This document shows, piece after piece, positions 100 to 28,876 of a stretch of DNA of 29,067 bases. The translations under genes were made by a program, and so were the position numbers. The DNA is from an uncultured Pseudomonadota bacterium (lineage in GTDB: Bacteria; Babelota; Babeliae; Babelales; RVW-14). The stretch spans positions 1 to 29,067 of the forward strand of contig CAZLQB010000002.1 of NCBI GenBank assembly GCA_964561585.1. The letters are read 5' to 3'. The notes beneath the pieces are model-generated. The model saw only the letters and a program-made list of their open reading frames with translations, did no database searches and was not told the DNA's origin. Position 1 is the stretch's first letter. Each line of letters opens with the position of its first letter.

Positions 100-130
100 C
101 CTAGGGAGGTGCAGGAGGGAACGGCCTGCA
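100..130 (+). repeat. Short GC-rich palindromic repeat (copy A): cctagggaggtgcaggagggaacggcctgca. It contains the inverted repeat TGCAGG...CCTGCA.
   Basis: An exact 29-bp match to the reverse complement of 22678..22706. An expanded copy lies at 5636..5702. GC-rich against an AT-rich background. Confidence 0.8.
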
Positions 131-3043: not shown

Positions 3044-3250
3044 GCTCGAGCGCCGTTCGTACCCATTCGACTACGCTCAGGGCGAACGGCGGATTAATAT
3101 CCTGCACCGCGTCGAAGGACGCCCTGTAATTGCTATGGCGGACAGGCAGAACGAACGAGTAAAATTTCGTTCGTGGTGAGCGAAGCCCCTTTGGGCGAAG
3201 TCGAATCCACATGAAATTTTGAGCATATCGAACCACCGCCCAAAAGAGCG
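3044..3250. repeat. GC-rich, multi-hairpin intergenic element between convergent genes. It may be a composite palindromic repeat or a small structured RNA.
   Basis: Several perfect stems are visible: CGCCGTTCG/CGAACGGCG (3051-3059/3083-3091), ACGAACG/CGTTCGT (about 3150-3175) and CCACCGC/GCGGTGG (about 3234-3253). It contains the module ggcggacaggc shared with the uvrC insertion (reverse complement gcctgtccgcc). Confidence 0.6.
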
Positions 3251-3285
3251 GTGGACAAACATCATATTATAAAAACAGAAAGCTA

Positions 3286-4890: not shown

Positions 4891-6573
4891 TCATACACCA
4901 TTATCAAGGCCTTTTCGCGCTATTTTACGGTGAAAACTAATGGCAAAGTGGTGAGTATAGTCACGCAGGGCAATCAATAGCTGGCCGGCAAAGGTCATTT
5001 TATCAAGACGACGCCCCTCTGGAAGCCGATCGGCGTAAACAGTTTCTTCGCGTTTTGCCAAACTGATAACATCAACCCCGTCCGGTATTAGTGGCCGCGT
5101 AGCCGATAACTGCCCTTTCCCACCATCAATTACCACAAGATCGGGTAAATCTTCCCCATCACGGTACCGCCGCCCAACAATCTCGGCCAAACTGGCATAA
5201 TCGTCCTGCCCTTTAACCGTTTTTATATGAAAATGGCGAAACATTTTTTTGTCAGGCTGGCCATCGGTAAACCGCACACAAGACCCAACCATAAACATCC
5301 CTTGCTTGTGAGAGATATCAAAACAATCGATTTTGCGCGGCTCTTTGGCCAATTTAAGGAGTCGTTTAAGGGATTGGCCCAACGTTGCCTTTTTGATAAG
5401 TTCCTGCGCAACCTGGACCGTTGCATAGCGTATTAATGACAATTCATGGCCAATAGTAGGCTGCATAATGGTCACCGGTTGGTCAAGGTGGTGCCATTGA
5501 GTTAAAAACTGTTGGTACAAATCTCGTTCGGCCGGCGCAAGGTCAAAATTGACGAGTATTCTGATGGCTGGTCTAAAGGTTCGGTAATAACCTATAAAGT
5601 ATTCTTCTAAATTTTGCGGCTCATAAGGGGGTTCTCCAAGGGAGGTGCAGGAGGGCCTGTCCGCCGTAGCCACGCCAGGGCGAAGGCTGGAAACGGCCTG
5701 CATTAAATCAATATCAACAAAAGGAAAATAGAAACTTTGTTTAAGCCTCAGCACATTTTGCTGCTCAATCAAAACATGAAGCGACCTTTTATCATCGGCC
5801 AAAATCCAAATATCATGCCCAACCCGCCCGCCAACACTCATAGGCTTAATATCTAAATACGAAAAAACCTTATGGCACGCTGTGTAATACCCGTGTAATT
5901 CACGCGCACGCTCAAATTCTTCCCGCTTATTGCATGCCTGTATTTGCGCCATAAGGTCATCAAGAAAAACTTTATGCCCCTGCGACATCACCCGCCGCGC
6001 GAGATTAAGCCGTTCGGTATATGCTGCTTCATCAAAATCAGGCCGGCATTTTCCAGCGCAAATGCCAAGGTGATAGTCCAAGCACCCATTTTCAATCTTT
6101 TTTTTACATAACTTAAGGCGAAATGTTTTTATCAAAAAATCATAAACTTGGCGCGCCGCAGCCTTTTCAAGAAACGGTCCTAAATAGGTCCCCTTTTGCT
6201 TACGATTTCGCACCAATTTAAGCTCAGGCAATTTATTGGCCGTAAAAAGCAGGAATATAAACGGCTGGCCGGTCTTGAGTAAAACGTTAAATTTTGGCTG
6301 GTTGCTTTGAATAAGTTGAGCCTCAAGCAACATCGCCTCAAGTTCAGTTCCGGTTATCTGGTGGTCAAGGTGGTCACTTTCTTGCAATAAACTATCAACC
6401 TTTACATCTCGCCCAGCGCGCTGCAAATAATTGGCTCCGCGCTTTTTGAGGTTTTTCGCCTTGCCTATATAAAGAATATGGCCTTCGGCATCCTTAAAAA
6501 GATAAACGCCTGGCTTAGCGGGCAACTTTTTGATATCGGCAGCAACTTTTTCATGTTCAGTTAAAAGAATCAT
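4891..6573 (-). CDS. uvrC: Excinuclease ABC subunit C (UvrC), carrying an in-frame repeat insertion
   Basis: N-terminal GIY-YIG domain (PGVYLFKDAEGHILYIGKAKNLKKR). Endonuclease-domain motif IDCFDISHKQG. SD AGGAGAGG upstream. The repeat at 5636..5702 is translated in-frame (QAVSSLRPGVATADRPSCTSLG) in the linker before the endonuclease domain. Confidence 0.85.
   Translation of the reverse strand: MILLTEHEKVAADIKKLPAKPGVYLFKDAEGHILYIGKAKNLKKRGANYLQRAGRDVKVDSLLQESDHLDHQITGTELEAMLLEAQLIQSNQPKFNVLLKTGQPFIFLLFTANKLPELKLVRNRKQKGTYLGPFLEKAAARQVYDFLIKTFRLKLCKKKIENGCLDYHLGICAGKCRPDFDEAAYTERLNLARRVMSQGHKVFLDDLMAQIQACNKREEFERARELHGYYTACHKVFSYLDIKPMSVGGRVGHDIWILADDKRSLHVLIEQQNVLRLKQSFYFPFVDIDLMQAVSSLRPGVATADRPSCTSLGEPPYEPQNLEEYFIGYYRTFRPAIRILVNFDLAPAERDLYQQFLTQWHHLDQPVTIMQPTIGHELSLIRYATVQVAQELIKKATLGQSLKRLLKLAKEPRKIDCFDISHKQGMFMVGSCVRFTDGQPDKKMFRHFHIKTVKGQDDYASLAEIVGRRYRDGEDLPDLVVIDGGKGQLSATRPLIPDGVDVISLAKREETVYADRLPEGRRLDKMTFAGQLLIALRDYTHHFAISFHRKIARKGLDNGV
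5636..5702. repeat. Expanded copy (B) of the palindromic repeat, with a 35-bp internal module, sitting inside the uvrC coding sequence
   Basis: ccaagggaggtgcaggaggg + cctgtccgccgtagccacgccagggcgaaggctgg + aaacggcctgca. The flanks are identical to copies A and C. The internal module is related to 3100..3146 (reverse complement). Confidence 0.8.
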
Positions 6574-14078: not shown

Positions 14079-14246
14079 TTTTCAAAATAAAGCCATTCAC
14101 TTTGCGCTCCTGCAAGATGGGTGGCTTTAAAAATGACATTTTTCGTGTTTCCTGCTAGGATTGGTGCACGGGGCTTTAATTATACAGCCAAGTCGTTCCC
14201 CCTTGGCAAACCCCCCTAAGAAATTGAATAATAACGAAAGGTTTGC

Positions 14247-21874: not shown

Positions 21875-22666
21875 TCACAAATCAATCAATTGAACATTTG
21901 CAACAATGTCCCCAATCAACCGACGAGCAATAAACTGAAATTGCTTCGCATCCTTGGTCGCATAAAATTGATAATTTGGTATATCAACCAGAGCATTTTG
22001 CAGCAAAACACGTTTAACCTGCCGCGCAACAGGATCATTTGAATCAAGAATGGTCACCGAAGGGCCAACGATGCTTTGTAATTGTGCACGCACAAAGGGA
22101 TAATGGGTGCTACATAAACCAATAACGTCCGCATTATTATCTATTGCTGGAGCAATAAGCGTGCGTAGTAATATTTCCATTTCAGGTGTATTAATCTTGC
22201 CCGCTTCAACCAAATCGGCAAGGCCCGGACACCCAATACTCAAAACCTGTGCACCATGAGCAAACTTATTAATAAGATCCTGGATATAATTACCACTGGC
22301 CGTTAATGGCGTAGATAAAATAGCAACACAGCCTGTTTTTGTTTGTTCACAAGCGGGTTTGACAACCGGAACCACCCCGACAAATGGGATGGAGAATTTT
22401 GAGCGCAAATAGTCGATGCTTGCAACCGTTGCCGTATTGCAAGCAATAACAACTAATTTTACGTCATGTTTATCGATCAAAAATTGTACAATTTTTTCTG
22501 AAATTTGCTGGATCTGTTCGGTGGTTTTTTGACCAAACGGCATGTATTTATTGCCCGCAACATACACAATATCTTCGTTGGGCAATAAACGCGTAATTGA
22601 TTGGAAAATGCCGAGGCCGCCAACCCCAGAATCAAACATGCCGATAGGTTTATTTAATAAAGGCAT
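21875..22666 (-). CDS. murI: Glutamate racemase
   Basis: IGMFDSGVGGLGIF N-terminal motif, with the conserved Cys-containing motifs (VIACNTA and GCTHYP). Confidence 0.9.
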   Translation of the reverse strand: MPLLNKPIGMFDSGVGGLGIFQSITRLLPNEDIVYVAGNKYMPFGQKTTEQIQQISEKIVQFLIDKHDVKLVVIACNTATVASIDYLRSKFSIPFVGVVPVVKPACEQTKTGCVAILSTPLTASGNYIQDLINKFAHGAQVLSIGCPGLADLVEAGKINTPEMEILLRTLIAPAIDNNADVIGLCSTHYPFVRAQLQSIVGPSVTILDSNDPVARQVKRVLLQNALVDIPNYQFYATKDAKQFQFIARRLIGDIVANVQLIDL

Positions 22667-22677
22667 TGTTAATTATA

Positions 22678-22706
22678 TGCAGGCCGTTCCCTCCTGCACC
22701 TCCCTA
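22678..22706 (-). repeat. Palindromic repeat copy C (an exact inverted copy of 102..130), lying in the 44-bp secA-murI spacer
   Basis: tgcaggccgttccctcctgcacctcccta is the reverse complement of tagggaggtgcaggagggaacggcctgca. Confidence 0.8.
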
Positions 22707-22710
22707 ATAC

Positions 22711-25269
22711 TTAATTTTTGCCGCAACAGTGCTTGTATTTTTTGCCCGAACCGCATGGGCAAAGTTCATTTCGCCCAACTTTAGGTTGCACGCGCTTAAC
22801 CGTTTTGGCATCAGCCTTACCGGTTCCATCGCCACCTAATTGTAACGTTGCTAATTCTTGTTCTTTTTCTTCTTCAATTTCTTCAAGAGCATCAATTGAA
22901 TAATCTTCTGGGCGCATGTGAAAAACACGTTGAAGAATATCCCACTTAATTTGTTCCATCATACGCTCAAACTCAAAATATGATTCGCGCTTATACTCAA
23001 TTAATGGATTTTTTGAGCCGTAACCGCGCCAACCAATACCTTCTTTAAGATGATCAATATTCAAAAGGTGCAAACGCCATGCGTGATCAATTGTCTCGAG
23101 TAAAACCCATTTTTCAGCACGGGCAACAAAATCTGGCTGATCGGGCATTTTTGCCGCCATTGCCATACGAATTTGTTCATATTGATAAATGAGAAACTCT
23201 GCAACAGCAATCTCAAAGCTCGTTTGATTTTTTGGCAACTGAATACGGTCAAAAAATTCGCTTGGCATCCCGGTCACTTTTTCAAGGGACTGGATAACCG
23301 CTGCGCGCTCCTCATGCGTTCCTCCACCATGTGGGCAATAAATATCAAACAACTTATGCACCACATCGGTCGCCATTTCTTTGATAAGGCCAACAATGAG
23401 CTCGCCACCCTCCAAAATATCACGGCGATATTGGTAAATAATGGCACGTTGTTGGTTAAGCACATCGTCATATTCGATCAAATGCTTACGAATATCAAAA
23501 TTATGTTTTTCAACGCGTTCCTGTGCCTTTTCGATGCTACGGGAAACCATACGATGCTCAATGCTTTCGCCGGGAAGCATGCCAATCCGCTCCATGGTCT
23601 TTTTGAGTCGTTCGCCACCAAAAATGCGCATCAAATCGTCTTCTAATGATAGATAAAACTTTGATGACCCAGGGTCACCTTGCCGCCCAGCGCGTCCACG
23701 CAATTGGTTATCAATACGACGACTTTCATGCCGCTCGGTACCAATAATACGTAACCCTCCAGCCGCAACAACCCCTTGCCCAAGCTTAATATCGGTACCA
23801 CGACCGGCCATATTGGTTGCAATAGTCACCTTGCCGGCCTCGCCCGCTTCCTTAATAATCTCAGCTTCACGCTCATGCTGCTTTGCATTCAAAACATTAT
23901 GCATAAGCCCTTGTTGCGCCAACAAATAACTCAAATATTCTGATGTTTCGATAGAAACGGTACCAACAAGCACCGGCTGTCCGCGCTTATTGCAATCTTT
24001 TATATCTTGAGCAACGGCTGCAAACTTATCCTCACGCGTCAAAAACACGATATCGGCTTCGTCATTTCTAACCATTGGACGATTTGTTGGAATTACGATA
24101 ACGCCCAGCTTATAAATTTTCCAAAACTCGGCCGCTTCGGTCTCGGCCGTTCCGGTCATACCGGCAAGTTTTTTGTACATTCTGAAGTAATTTTGTAGCG
24201 TAATGGATGCTAATGTCTGGTTTTCACGCTCAACTTTAACCTTTTCTTTGGCTTCAAGTGCTTGATGCAACCCATCGCTGTAGCGACGACCGGGCAATAT
24301 ACGACCAGTAAATTCGTCTACAATTAAAACTTCGCCTTCGCGTACTACATAATCAACGTCAACCTTAAAAAGGGTATGAGCGCGCAATGCTTGCGACGTA
24401 TGGTGAAGCGCCAAAATATTTTCTGGTGCGTAAAGATTATCTATCTTAAAGTAGTCCTCAATTTTATCGGTTCCAGCCTCACTCAAATGTACCGACCTGG
24501 CCTTTTCATCAACATCATAATCTTCTTTGCGCAGGGTTAAAACGGCTCGATCGGCCTCTTGATATAAGTTGCTCCCTTTTTCACTTGGCCCTGAAATAAT
24601 GAGCGGCGTACGCGCCTCATCGACCAAAATCGAGTCAACTTCGTCAACGATACAGAAGTTAAGTTCCCTTTGAACAAGGTCCTTTTTATCAAATTTCATG
24701 TTATCACGCAGGTAATCAAAACCAAATTCACTATTGGTTCCATACGTAATATCTGCACCGTAAACAAGCTTGCGTTCGGCATCTTCCATGCTGTTTTGTA
24801 GCACGCCAACCTCAAGCCCTAAATTTTTGTAAACGAGATTCATCCACTCGGCGTCGCGGCGAGCCAAATAGTCGTTAACCGTAATAAGATGGGCCCCCTT
24901 GCCTGACAATGCATTCAAATATAATGGCAAAGTAGCGACAAGTGTTTTCCCCTCACCGGTTTTCATTTCAGCGATTTTGCCTTCGTGTAAAACAATACCA
25001 CCAACCAACTGAACATCGTAATGGCGTTCATTACGAAAACGGTGACTTGTTTCACGCACAACGGCAAAAGCTTCAAATAAAATACTATCCAGCGGTTCAC
25101 CGCGGGATATGCGCTCTCTAAATATGTTGGTTTTGGCCATCAACTCGGCATTTGATAGCTCTTTTATTGCGGCCTCAAATGAGTTGATTTTTTCAACCAT
25201 TGGGTGAAGGCGCTTTAAATCGCGTTCATTTTTTGTTCCAAATACTTTTGCTAAAATTTTTGCAATCAT
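22711..25269 (-). CDS. secA: Preprotein translocase ATPase SecA
   Basis: Canonical N-terminus (KVFGTKNERDLKRL), the DEAD-like motor motifs, and a C-terminal zinc-binding CPCGSGKKYKHCCG. Confidence 0.95.
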   Translation of the reverse strand: MIAKILAKVFGTKNERDLKRLHPMVEKINSFEAAIKELSNAELMAKTNIFRERISRGEPLDSILFEAFAVVRETSHRFRNERHYDVQLVGGIVLHEGKIAEMKTGEGKTLVATLPLYLNALSGKGAHLITVNDYLARRDAEWMNLVYKNLGLEVGVLQNSMEDAERKLVYGADITYGTNSEFGFDYLRDNMKFDKKDLVQRELNFCIVDEVDSILVDEARTPLIISGPSEKGSNLYQEADRAVLTLRKEDYDVDEKARSVHLSEAGTDKIEDYFKIDNLYAPENILALHHTSQALRAHTLFKVDVDYVVREGEVLIVDEFTGRILPGRRYSDGLHQALEAKEKVKVERENQTLASITLQNYFRMYKKLAGMTGTAETEAAEFWKIYKLGVIVIPTNRPMVRNDEADIVFLTREDKFAAVAQDIKDCNKRGQPVLVGTVSIETSEYLSYLLAQQGLMHNVLNAKQHEREAEIIKEAGEAGKVTIATNMAGRGTDIKLGQGVVAAGGLRIIGTERHESRRIDNQLRGRAGRQGDPGSSKFYLSLEDDLMRIFGGERLKKTMERIGMLPGESIEHRMVSRSIEKAQERVEKHNFDIRKHLIEYDDVLNQQRAIIYQYRRDILEGGELIVGLIKEMATDVVHKLFDIYCPHGGGTHEERAAVIQSLEKVTGMPSEFFDRIQLPKNQTSFEIAVAEFLIYQYEQIRMAMAAKMPDQPDFVARAEKWVLLETIDHAWRLHLLNIDHLKEGIGWRGYGSKNPLIEYKRESYFEFERMMEQIKWDILQRVFHMRPEDYSIDALEEIEEEKEQELATLQLGGDGTGKADAKTVKRVQPKVGRNELCPCGSGKKYKHCCGKN

Positions 25270-27541: not shown

Positions 27542-28876
27542 ATGGGACATAGAATTATTCGGGCATTGTGGGGCAATCTCAAGGGCAAAGAGCTCATCAA
27601 ATTTGTCTTACTTGCCATAGGTTTCTTTTTTCTTATTGGTTCTTATTGGCCGCTAAAAACGCTCAAGGACAGCATATTTATTAATATGGTCGGCCCGCTC
27701 TATTTGCCGCAGGCGAAGCTTGCCTCCCTCGCTTTATTTTTCCCCCTTGTGCTACTTTATTCAAAACTAGTCGACATTTTCTCCAAAGAAAAAATGATCT
27801 ACATGCTTGTTGGTTTTTATAGCGTTATAGGGCTCGTTCTCGTTTATTATCTTCACCACCCAACGATTGGCCTACAAAACACAACTATTAGCAACACCCG
27901 CTATATTGGCTGGGCGTTTTACCTATTTGTAGAAAGCTATATTTCGTTAATGGTTTCGCTGTATTGGTCGTTTATCAATGATGTAACCACACCAGAATCT
28001 GCCCAAAAAGGGTATGGGCTTATTATCTTTGGTACACAATTTGGCGGCGTTTTATTCACCTTGCTCGGCAGTTATTTATCTTATGACACGACTAAATATG
28101 CCCACAGGGCGCCCATTATCGCACTTATTTCGGTTGCCATGTTTTTCATGATTGCCGTTATCGTCTTTATTTTGAAACACTTTGTTGGCGACGAACATCT
28201 TGAAGGTTATCAAACAAATACACCAATCGAAAAAGGGAGCGATATCGCAACGGTTGGCTTTCTTGATGGACTTAAAGTATTACTAACACGCCCCTACGTT
28301 TCTGGCATTTTTGTTCTTATTTTCTTTCAAGAACTGCTAACGACCATTATGAGCTTTCAAATGTCACTCATGGTAAAAAATACTTATGCAGACCCTGGAA
28401 TGGTCAATAAGTTTTTGTTCGAGTTTGCCTTAGCCATACAGGTTATTGCCTGCTTATTCGGGCTTTTCGGCACATCATATTTCCAACGTACATTTGGAAT
28501 AAAATTTTGCTTAATCGCCTTCCCACTGCTTATTGGCGTGTCGCTTATTGGGTATATTATTCATCCATCCCTTGCAACAATCTTCTGTGTGGTACTTATT
28601 GCAAAAGCCCTAAATTATGCACTTTATCAACCAGCTAAAGAAGTCCTTTATATTCCAACCTCAAAAAGCATAAAGTATAAATCTAAAGCATGGATTGACA
28701 TGTTCGGCATGCGTTTTGCAAAAGCAACAGGGTCAGGCATTAGCAGTCTTATTGGACCCGCAACAGGTCTTGTTGGTGGAACATGCATAGGAATTATTTC
28801 GGTCTGGGTATTTTTGGCAAGTTTGATTGGCAATGTATATAAAAAAGTCATCACCAATAAAACGCTTATTGATTAA
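27542..28876 (+). CDS. Nucleotide (ATP/ADP) translocase of the NTT/Tlc family
   Basis: The N-terminal region (ELIKFVLLAIGFFFLIGSYWPLKTLKDSIFINMVG...LFFPLVLLYSKLVDIFSKEKMIYMLVGFY) follows the conserved TLC-family pattern (...ILRDTKD...LYTKL.N..SKEKLFY...). About 12 TM helices in 444 aa. Confidence 0.75.
   Translation: MGHRIIRALWGNLKGKELIKFVLLAIGFFFLIGSYWPLKTLKDSIFINMVGPLYLPQAKLASLALFFPLVLLYSKLVDIFSKEKMIYMLVGFYSVIGLVLVYYLHHPTIGLQNTTISNTRYIGWAFYLFVESYISLMVSLYWSFINDVTTPESAQKGYGLIIFGTQFGGVLFTLLGSYLSYDTTKYAHRAPIIALISVAMFFMIAVIVFILKHFVGDEHLEGYQTNTPIEKGSDIATVGFLDGLKVLLTRPYVSGIFVLIFFQELLTTIMSFQMSLMVKNTYADPGMVNKFLFEFALAIQVIACLFGLFGTSYFQRTFGIKFCLIAFPLLIGVSLIGYIIHPSLATIFCVVLIAKALNYALYQPAKEVLYIPTSKSIKYKSKAWIDMFGMRFAKATGSGISSLIGPATGLVGGTCIGIISVWVFLASLIGNVYKKVITNKTLID

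Follow-up and report, generated by a model that had tools for sequence, protein, structure and literature searches.

What is an identical hairpin of 29 nucleotides (nt) doing at two separate gene junctions of one contig? The question is raised by the 29,067-nt stretch of contig CAZLQB010000002.1 analysed here at its full length (the window). An earlier note, made from the letters of this stretch alone, had read the repeated element as a sign of recent spread or strong constraint, for instance on a protein-binding site or an RNA hairpin, with a Shine-Dalgarno (SD) mimic and a possible role as an intercistronic stabiliser. The analysis points elsewhere: the two copies belong to a dispersed family, members of which are inserted at new sites, both between genes and in frame within housekeeping genes, and the element has the look of selfish mobile DNA, not of a site designed for regulation. 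We consider it likely that the family is made of non-autonomous mobile hairpin repeats of the REP/REPIN and RPE kind, residing in Dependentiae; the REP-like lead of the earlier note is the nearest analogy. This reading is based on multi-copy dispersion within a subclade, empty sites, nesting, coding copies in both orientations, inverted doublets and a tagged hairpin, and also on the finding that different elements fill the same spacer in sister genomes.

The two copies in the window

An exact search of the window located the 29-mer TAGGGAGGTGCAGGAGGGAACGGCCTGCA at two positions, on opposite strands:

102-130, + strand: copy 1, a type-A singlet (types are described below); exact match, 52.9 bits by the covariance model at 97-133
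22678-22706, - strand: copy 2, a type-A singlet with the same sequence as copy 1; exact match, 51.7 bits by the covariance model

The pair of inverted exact copies described in the earlier note was recovered, the first of them starting at 102, 2 nt later than the 100 given there. Allowing as many as 3 mismatches brought no further match in the window, and 100 shuffles of the sequence gave none either, the chance expectation being none. Copy 1 is made of a 5' box, (T)AGGGAGGT, and a stem of 6 bp, TGCAGG/CCTGCA, closed by the 9-nt loop AGGGAACGG; its predicted fold is moderately stable (-8.5 kcal/mol as RNA, -5.3 as DNA). Both GGAGG and AGGAGG motifs occur within the 29-mer. With about 42% GC in the window, the AT-rich background noted earlier is so only to a moderate degree, and the GC contrast of the element is modest.

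Copy 1 starts 4 nt past the stop of an NfeD-like open reading frame (ORF; TAA 95-97), 39 nt upstream of the ATG at 170 of an SPFH/HflK-like ORF (170-1120). Copy 2, lying 4 nt after the secA stop (22711-22713), takes up most of the 44-nt spacer between secA and murI (ATG 22666). The ORF coordinates agree with the settings originally described, and both copies read on the strand of their flanking genes. At the gathering threshold, Rfam 15 matches only two tRNAs in the window and nothing at the element; permissive Rfam scans of both loci returned chance-level matches only (E > 0.6).

A promoter for sigma-54 or sigma-70 was considered and rejected by eye, the box being unlike the -24/-12 or -35 consensus and the AT-rich tails being missing in coding copies. 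A TATAAT-like hexamer is found downstream of the hairpin.

Census and distribution of the family

In the spirit of the census suggested in the earlier note, one genome per species (GTDB) was scanned for a 19-nt core, which revealed a dispersed multi-copy family. Two metagenome-assembled genomes (MAGs) are rich in it: 19 exact-core copies were found in 11 contigs (944 kb) of CAZGPI01, and 8 in 7 contigs (146 kb) of CAZBUZ01, all of them sharing the 5' box (A/G)GGGAGGT. Fourteen isolated core matches elsewhere fall in GC-rich genomes, lack the 5' box and show no flank similarity, and were taken as chance. One more exact-core copy stands at the end of a GC-rich contig (L004). In this contig, which has 58% GC and bears the label Oscillospiraceae, the terminal 52 nt (positions 1-58) hold a type-A copy and, after it, a B-like one; this could be either a co-assembly chimera formed at the repeat or a real occurrence outside Babeliales.

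A covariance model trained on 34 copies recognized 4 members in the window: the two flagged copies, one of a sister type and one split copy within uvrC. In 203 kb of MAG loci it gave 42 matches, about 30 of which are near-perfect, followed by a thin tail of diverged copies. The density is about 1 copy per 20-50 kb.

The window represents a third genome: over orthologous stretches, its DNA is 78-82% identical to that of CAZGPI, and about 70-74% identical to that of CAZBUZ. The master sequence shows no difference between genomes that share no more than 70-80% identity in the flanks; the chance of a neutral 27-29 nt segment staying identical at that divergence is about 0.002 or less. More distant relatives have each their own stem variant. 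The family is seen in NCBI MAGs, JGI metagenomes and Logan assemblies alike. A metagenome scan with a degenerate pattern gave, among the 120 matches listed, nearly only chance hits in GC-rich contigs; at least five of the matches listed (L047, L063, L069, L097 and L156) are true low-GC members, which add the stems GCTGG/CCAGC and GGAGG/CCTCC. A scan of viral contigs gave no match.

The carriers are a narrow clade of uncultured Babeliales (Dependentiae/TM6): the named protein relatives of UvrC, MurE and MurI are all Babeliales, Dependentiae or TM6. The record titles of CAZGPI01 and CAZBUZ01 read "uncultured Pseudomonadota", in conflict with these named homologues; judging from the homologues, the label is probably a misclassification. 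The window also encodes a TLC ATP/ADP translocase (27542-28876), NurA and a T2SSE ATPase.

Structure of the repeated unit

The type-A unit consists of an unpaired, G-rich 5' box (RGGGAGGT), a stem of 5-6 bp and the conserved loop AGGGAACGG, and is often trailed by a tail of the ATTAA type. A sister unit, type B, has the box AGGGGGTTT, the stem CCAAGG/CCTTGG and the loop GGGAACG. Box and loop are constant across copies while the stem changes with compensation; besides the two stems contributed by metagenomes and that of type B, the variants include GCAGG/CCTGC, GCGGG/CCCGC, GCCGG/CCGGC, CGCAGG/CCTGCG and GGCGG/CTGCC. In the alignment of 34 copies 95.6% of cells are paired, with compensatory double changes at 4 of the 6 pairs; none of 500 shuffles reaches the observed value, and slid controls drop to 23-44% paired. 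These data bear out the TGCAGG...CCTGCA hairpin put forward in the earlier note, and, given the controls, the covariation of the stem indicates that the hairpin as such is selected, on single-stranded DNA or on RNA.

In the same 34 copies the conserved unpaired end is RGGGAGG(T), and neither a GTAG/CGTC tag nor its complement is present at either end. Reading the element in all six frames gives no stop codon.

Type A is often trailed by an inverted type B, which gives REPIN/MITE-like doublets; nine were seen, all of them intergenic. The two units are separated by an AT-rich spacer (ATTAA...) of 13-35 nt, for a total length of 75-100 nt, and the doublets have imperfect inverted ends, AGGGRGGT.../...ACCYCCCT. 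They are predicted to fold either into two hairpins or into one long hairpin.

In many copies a short inverted repeat, CTCC(N2)GGAG, spans the left boundary (e.g. ACCTCC TA GGGAGGT in L031). Directly 5' of the type-A copy in uvrC (5626-5637 of the window; 67-80 of L011) lies AGGGGGTTCTCC, similar to the 5' box of type B. Both features could point to an additional small hairpin or to a preferred kind of target.

Empty sites and the secA-murI junction

The spacer between the NfeD-like and SPFH genes, 72 nt long in the window, measures 42 nt in a relative (L044). There, TAA TCC is followed by 39 nt and ATG, while in the window TAA TCC is followed by the 29-nt element, 40 nt and ATG. The comparison defines a clean insertion of 29-30 nt, with the flanks TAATCC | ATACAT, the left one common to L044; no target duplication is seen in this filled/empty pair. 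In CAZGPI the corresponding spacer is 330 nt long and is occupied by other GC-rich hairpin families.

In three relatives (L165, L166 and L167), whose MurI is 64-74% identical, secA and murI overlap or abut, the junctions reading AAT TAATG ATC GGT, AGT TGATG ATT GGT and AAT TAA GTG, respectively. In the window, and in CAZGPI (L008), which carries the same element in the orthologous spacer, about 60-65 nt separate the secA stop from the ancestral ATC/ATT GGT codons. The empty-site relatives hold no family member in 45.8 kb (the secA-murI contigs) and in 19.5 kb. Part of the additional DNA is a tail, similar forms of which (AATTAAT.ATGCC.TT) trail other copies:

22646-22677, - strand: AT-rich tail co-inserted with copy 2, TATAATTAACA ATG CCT TTA TTA AAT AAA CCT

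The tail holds the annotated murI start (22664-22666) and a seven-codon N-terminal extension absent from the relatives, which reads MPLLNKP in the window and MSLFVKP in CAZGPI. From the alignment of filled and empty junctions it follows that the annotated ATG of murI and the 7-residue extension derive from inserted DNA. It appears, from the same alignment, that the element broke the ancestral stop/start overlap and now supplies the whole spacer.

The start of murI is ambiguous, an alternative in-frame ATG (22642) being found 24 nt downstream of the ATG at 22666. The MurI on record for the window (P0241, 263 aa) starts at the upstream ATG. The CAZGPI protein on record (P0243) has 259 aa, 9 fewer than the 268-aa ORF read from the upstream ATG, and its annotation therefore begins at the downstream one.

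An SD-like motif is present at -6 to -17 in 12 of 20 genes of the window, mostly at -8 to -13. The only SD-like motifs of murI all lie inside the element, at -27 to -37: the SD mimic of the earlier note exists as a motif, and the distance of about 22 nt between element and murI start given there needs correction. Measured against the other genes, these motifs are too distant to serve murI as an ordinary SD. The 3' end of the element is 11 nt from the ATG, and the GGGAGG box, standing beside a hairpin whose foot is this close, may compensate for the lost coupling to secA, by analogy with known systems discussed below. Such an effect on murI translation would be co-opted and secondary, and is considered possible.

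Copies within coding sequences

About half of the copies, in one orientation or the other, lie within long ORFs whose reading frame continues across the element. The assignment of the host genes was checked with Pfam, domains being found on both sides of the element in MutS, IleRS, MurE, GatA, iPGM and UppP, and likewise in a FabG-like SDR, a CCA/poly(A) polymerase, a GHMP kinase, a GT1 glycosyltransferase and UvrC. Of some 17 coding copies, about 10 are antisense to the host gene. Sense copies encode the peptide ..EVQEGTAC.., antisense copies ..QAVPSCTS.., ..RPFPPAPP.. or ..AGRSLLHL... Judging from the short spacers between ORFs, intergenic DNA would still hold more copies than its portion of the genome would lead one to expect.

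The uvrC gene of the window (4891-6573) holds an antisense copy, and intact copies occupy the same linker in CAZGPI (L011) and CAZBUZ (L026). In a fourth genome (L042), uvrC carries a variant copy in the opposite orientation, and two more relatives have none.

The boundaries of insertion within genes were searched by comparing the FabG-like protein and iPGM with PDB homologues, MurE with its relatives, and uvrC in a DNA alignment. All three attempts gave net changes in length that differ from the length of the element. Either the insertions in coding DNA were accompanied or followed by loss of neighbouring codons, or the loops may not be reliably alignable. In a MurE relative (P0124), a Pro/Gly/Ser-rich extra segment, HSPGSSPGQALRPLP, is found at alignment columns ~300-320, in the same loop that holds the element in CAZGPI; another GC-rich sequence may have been inserted at this permissive place.

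Other members and nested hairpin families

Two family members of the window had escaped the earlier note: a sister-type copy (14185-14220, - strand) and the split copy in uvrC (5638-5706). They are listed here with other small hairpins of the window:

5638-5655, + strand: left half of the type-A copy in uvrC, with the 5' box, the 5' stem arm and the beginning of the loop, antisense to uvrC
5656-5688, + strand: GC-rich hairpin of family C, nested in the loop of the uvrC copy
5689-5706, + strand: right half of the uvrC type-A copy (rest of the loop, 3' stem arm, ATTAA tail)
3120-3147, + strand: stand-alone family C element, CGCCCTGTAATTGCTATGGCGGACAGGC, an inverted repeat in the convergent PBP1A/MurJ spacer
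14185-14220, - strand: type-B copy with box AGGGGGGTTT, stem GCCAAG/CTTGGC and loop GGGGAACGA
14157-14184, + strand: candidate decayed type-A partner, TAGGATTGGTGCACGGGGCTTTAATTATA, read from the sequence only and missed by the covariance model
~3052-3092: hairpin CGCCGTTCG...CGAACGGCG, PBP1A/MurJ spacer
~3178-3210: hairpin CGTTCGTGGTGAGCG...GTCGAATCCAC, PBP1A/MurJ spacer

The left half of the uvrC copy is translated within ..MQAVSS..CTS.., and the right half has one substitution (GGGAAC -> GGAAAC). The family C insert, 33 nt long, comes with a 3-nt CCC/TCC repeat; the resulting 36 nt keep the frame. The split point falls in the loop, at GTT(T)CC | CCTCC when the C-rich strand is read. Family C also breaks up a type-B copy in L097 (~140-175), an unrelated metagenome contig, and does so at the same place in the loop. 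The presence of family C at the same C-run in two independent places suggests that the A/B loop is a specific target of another small element, to which family C would home.

The type-B copy was identified both by pattern match and by the covariance model (14184-14220, 34.1 bits, E = 1.9e-7). It is located 27 nt upstream of ychF (14247) and inverted relative to this gene, like the B unit of the doublets; together with TAGGATTGGTGCACGGGGCTTTAATTATA it might make up a degenerate doublet (14157-14220), oriented like the others, an assignment which is tentative.

The PBP1A/MurJ spacer (3044-3285) is crowded with other GC-rich palindromes. Its motifs recur in CAZGPI (L011, 7240-7420) and CAZBUZ (L026, ~1100-1180), and several distinct mini-hairpin families therefore coexist.

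Mobile repeat or functional site

A regulatory explanation would have the copies act in cis on mRNA, the GGGAGG box and the GGA of the loop serving as a platform for the ribosome or for a CsrA-like protein, whether as a long-range or "split" SD, as a standby site or as an intercistronic stabiliser. In its favour are the bias of intergenic type-A copies, whose G-rich strand, by ORF-based calls, runs in the sense of the gene downstream in about 14 cases versus 2-3; a conserved box and loop joined to covarying stems, as in structured RNAs; G·U-type wobbles found on the G-rich strand only, in two variants; the lack of any other SD-like sequence at murI; and the identity of the secA-murI copy in two genomes with about 80% DNA identity. 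We nevertheless regard it as unlikely, with a small but real chance of being correct, since about half of the copies are in coding sequence, in both orientations and several frames and often antisense to the host, and since the next start codon is found anywhere from 0 to about 98 nt away, with no preferred spacing. Moreover, the ancestral secA-murI junction functioned without the element, sites exist empty, one copy has another element in its loop, Rfam holds no match, and the motifs before murI lie well beyond the distances seen in other genes. The same observations speak against the roles proposed in the earlier note as the main explanation.

Could the sequence be kept uniform as a signal on double-stranded DNA, such as an uptake signal (USS/DUS-like) or a parS-like site of chromosome organisation? 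The perfect master sequence across 70-80% identical genomes, the genic copies in both orientations, the intergenic inverted pairs and the presence in the window of a gene for a type II/IV secretion (pilus-type) ATPase would agree with such a signal. Stems, however, vary within one genome while pairing is kept, unlike a sequence recognized as a double strand; the copies are far sparser than USS/DUS, which occur about once per kb; and close relatives have no copy at all. We judge this explanation very improbable. As to a local duplication, or an assembly or co-assembly artefact limited to this contig, the window, like the two MAGs with the most copies, appears to come from an NCBI metagenome assembly and the terminal 52-nt copy of L004 could be a chimeric join, but independent JGI and Logan assemblies contain the family, copies are in frame in conserved genes, stems covary and positions are shared between genomes. 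This alternative, like the possibility raised in the earlier note that only two copies exist, is refuted by the census.

The interpretation as mobile repeats has its own difficulties. A clean insertion is seen only at the NfeD-SPFH copy, and inside genes the net change in length does not equal the element (-6 aa in MurE, about +3 codons in UvrC, about +4 aa in the FabG-like protein). Orthologous copies, those of uvrC in three genomes and of secA-murI in two, are identical and show no decay; degenerate copies are few and the scores bimodal, which fits a strong functional constraint on each copy too. The sense bias of intergenic copies hints at a role at the RNA level, with selection on mRNA probably behind it; one possible reason would be selection against CCUCC-rich antisense copies, able to pair with SDs. 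Relative to local GC skew the orientation is unbiased (18 versus 17), which counts against the lagging-strand model of IS200/IS605, since that model predicts a skew bias. The folding energy of the doublets as long hairpins is no better than that of shuffled sequence. Finally, the check for REP-associated tyrosine transposases (RAYT) or IS200-like genes recommended in the earlier note was negative within the roughly 300 kb of element-centred low-GC loci that it covered: phmmer with approximate sequences of IS200 TnpA and E. coli YafM gave no IS200/RAYT-like ORF, a regular expression for HUH...Y gave no motif, and an all-vs-all comparison of the ORFs of these loci revealed no multi-copy gene adjoining the elements.

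If the family is mobile, it would spread via a single-stranded hairpin intermediate, its box and loop being recognized by a trans-acting enzyme; the same enzyme would keep the master sequence from changing between species, in the manner proposed for REP/REPIN and RAYT. The uniform master sequence fits a trans-acting recogniser or continuing turnover, as argued for REPINs, and site-by-site functional constraint would also fit it. The two flagged copies would be passengers which reshape junctions, the NfeD-SPFH spacer being merely lengthened by 29-30 nt.

A less orthodox variant, which we rate as improbable, sees in the family a "junction cassette" that propagates itself: a module for ribosome binding or regulation that is mobile, maintained by an enzyme unrelated to RAYT, and kept identical across species because the same protein uses the copies as functional sites. 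Were it true, a 29-nt hairpin with an SD-like box and a tail that can carry a start codon would be copied into gene junctions and coding loops of Dependentiae and would rewire translation initiation there, replacing the stop/start coupling at secA-murI and supplying a new start codon, while a second hairpin family homes into its loop.

Under the preferred interpretation as mobile hairpin repeats, mini-elements like REP and RPE would extend to Dependentiae (TM6), a poorly known, protist-associated phylum with small genomes. A mobile unit as small as 29 nt can insert cleanly, is tolerated in essential enzymes as 9-11 extra or replaced residues, and can remodel operon junctions, as in the loss of translational coupling between secA and murI. 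The combination of constant box and loop, free stem, species variants and a second family targeting the loop would offer a compact model for sequence identity across species, and a handle for finding the enzyme responsible. Annotation is affected as well: the repeats give rise to an ambiguous start codon at murI, to ORFs that are spuriously extended and to odd insertions within conserved proteins of these MAGs.

Comparison with known repeats

In gene 38 of phage T4, the ribosome binding site is "split", being bridged by a hairpin. The only SD-like box of murI similarly stands just 5' of a stable hairpin, the folding of which could draw the box close to the start codon; the analogy would apply to this one copy, and cannot account for the family. 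Unlike MITEs (transposable elements of miniature size with inverted repeats), the doublets have imperfect inverted ends, no target duplication and no parent insertion sequence in about 300 kb. The GC clusters of yeast mitochondria are comparable small GC-rich hairpins. The RHEs of sponge mitochondrial DNA are likewise small GC-rich hairpins of a lower-GC genome, with nesting, occasional coding sites and no transposase; they are organellar rather than bacterial, have no sequence in common with the present family, and differ in that the GC contrast here is modest (PMC2800124).

The RPEs are selfish palindromes of intracellular Rickettsia, found in intergenic DNA and in frame within genes, with lineage-specific proliferation (PMC1779305). 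The repeats described here share both types of location, but RPEs are 100-150 bp long, against 29 nt (75-100 nt for doublets), and belong to an unrelated phylum (PMC1779305). The GTAG/CGTC repeats, as presented in the passages covered of Di Nocera et al. 2013 (PMC3733652), are short stem-loops with an unpaired tag, located mostly between unidirectional or convergent ORFs; some families are intragenic, notably in replication and repair genes, and the CGTC repeats have no known dedicated transposase. Repair genes, uvrC and mutS, are among the hosts here too, whereas neither tag is present and the conserved loop is an additional feature; Dependentiae/Babeliales (TM6) are not named in those passages of the survey (PMC3733652). 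Full-text literature searches returned no description of such repeats in Dependentiae (TM6).

REPs are known to be targets of insertion sequences. The present family resembles REPs and REPINs in many respects: a GC-rich imperfect palindrome of 20-40 nt with an unpaired conserved end motif, repeated in a genome tens of times or more; doublets of inverted units with a short spacer; a lineage master sequence accompanied by lineage-specific variants; hairpins which act as insertion targets; and, at the one clean site available here, no target duplication (PMC3116915, PMC3337134). In contrast, the tag is RGGGAGGT rather than GTAG, roughly one copy in two lies inside a gene, whereas a mostly extragenic location is part of the definition of REPs, copies number in the tens and not in the hundreds, the search of about 300 kb has so far given no RAYT, the hosts are Dependentiae instead of Proteobacteria, and the partners in a doublet are two subtypes. 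Given the lack of a GTAG/CGTC tag, the intragenic half and the host phylum, the family stands outside the defined REP families; membership among REPs is not established, and by analogy the family appears to work in the way REPs do.

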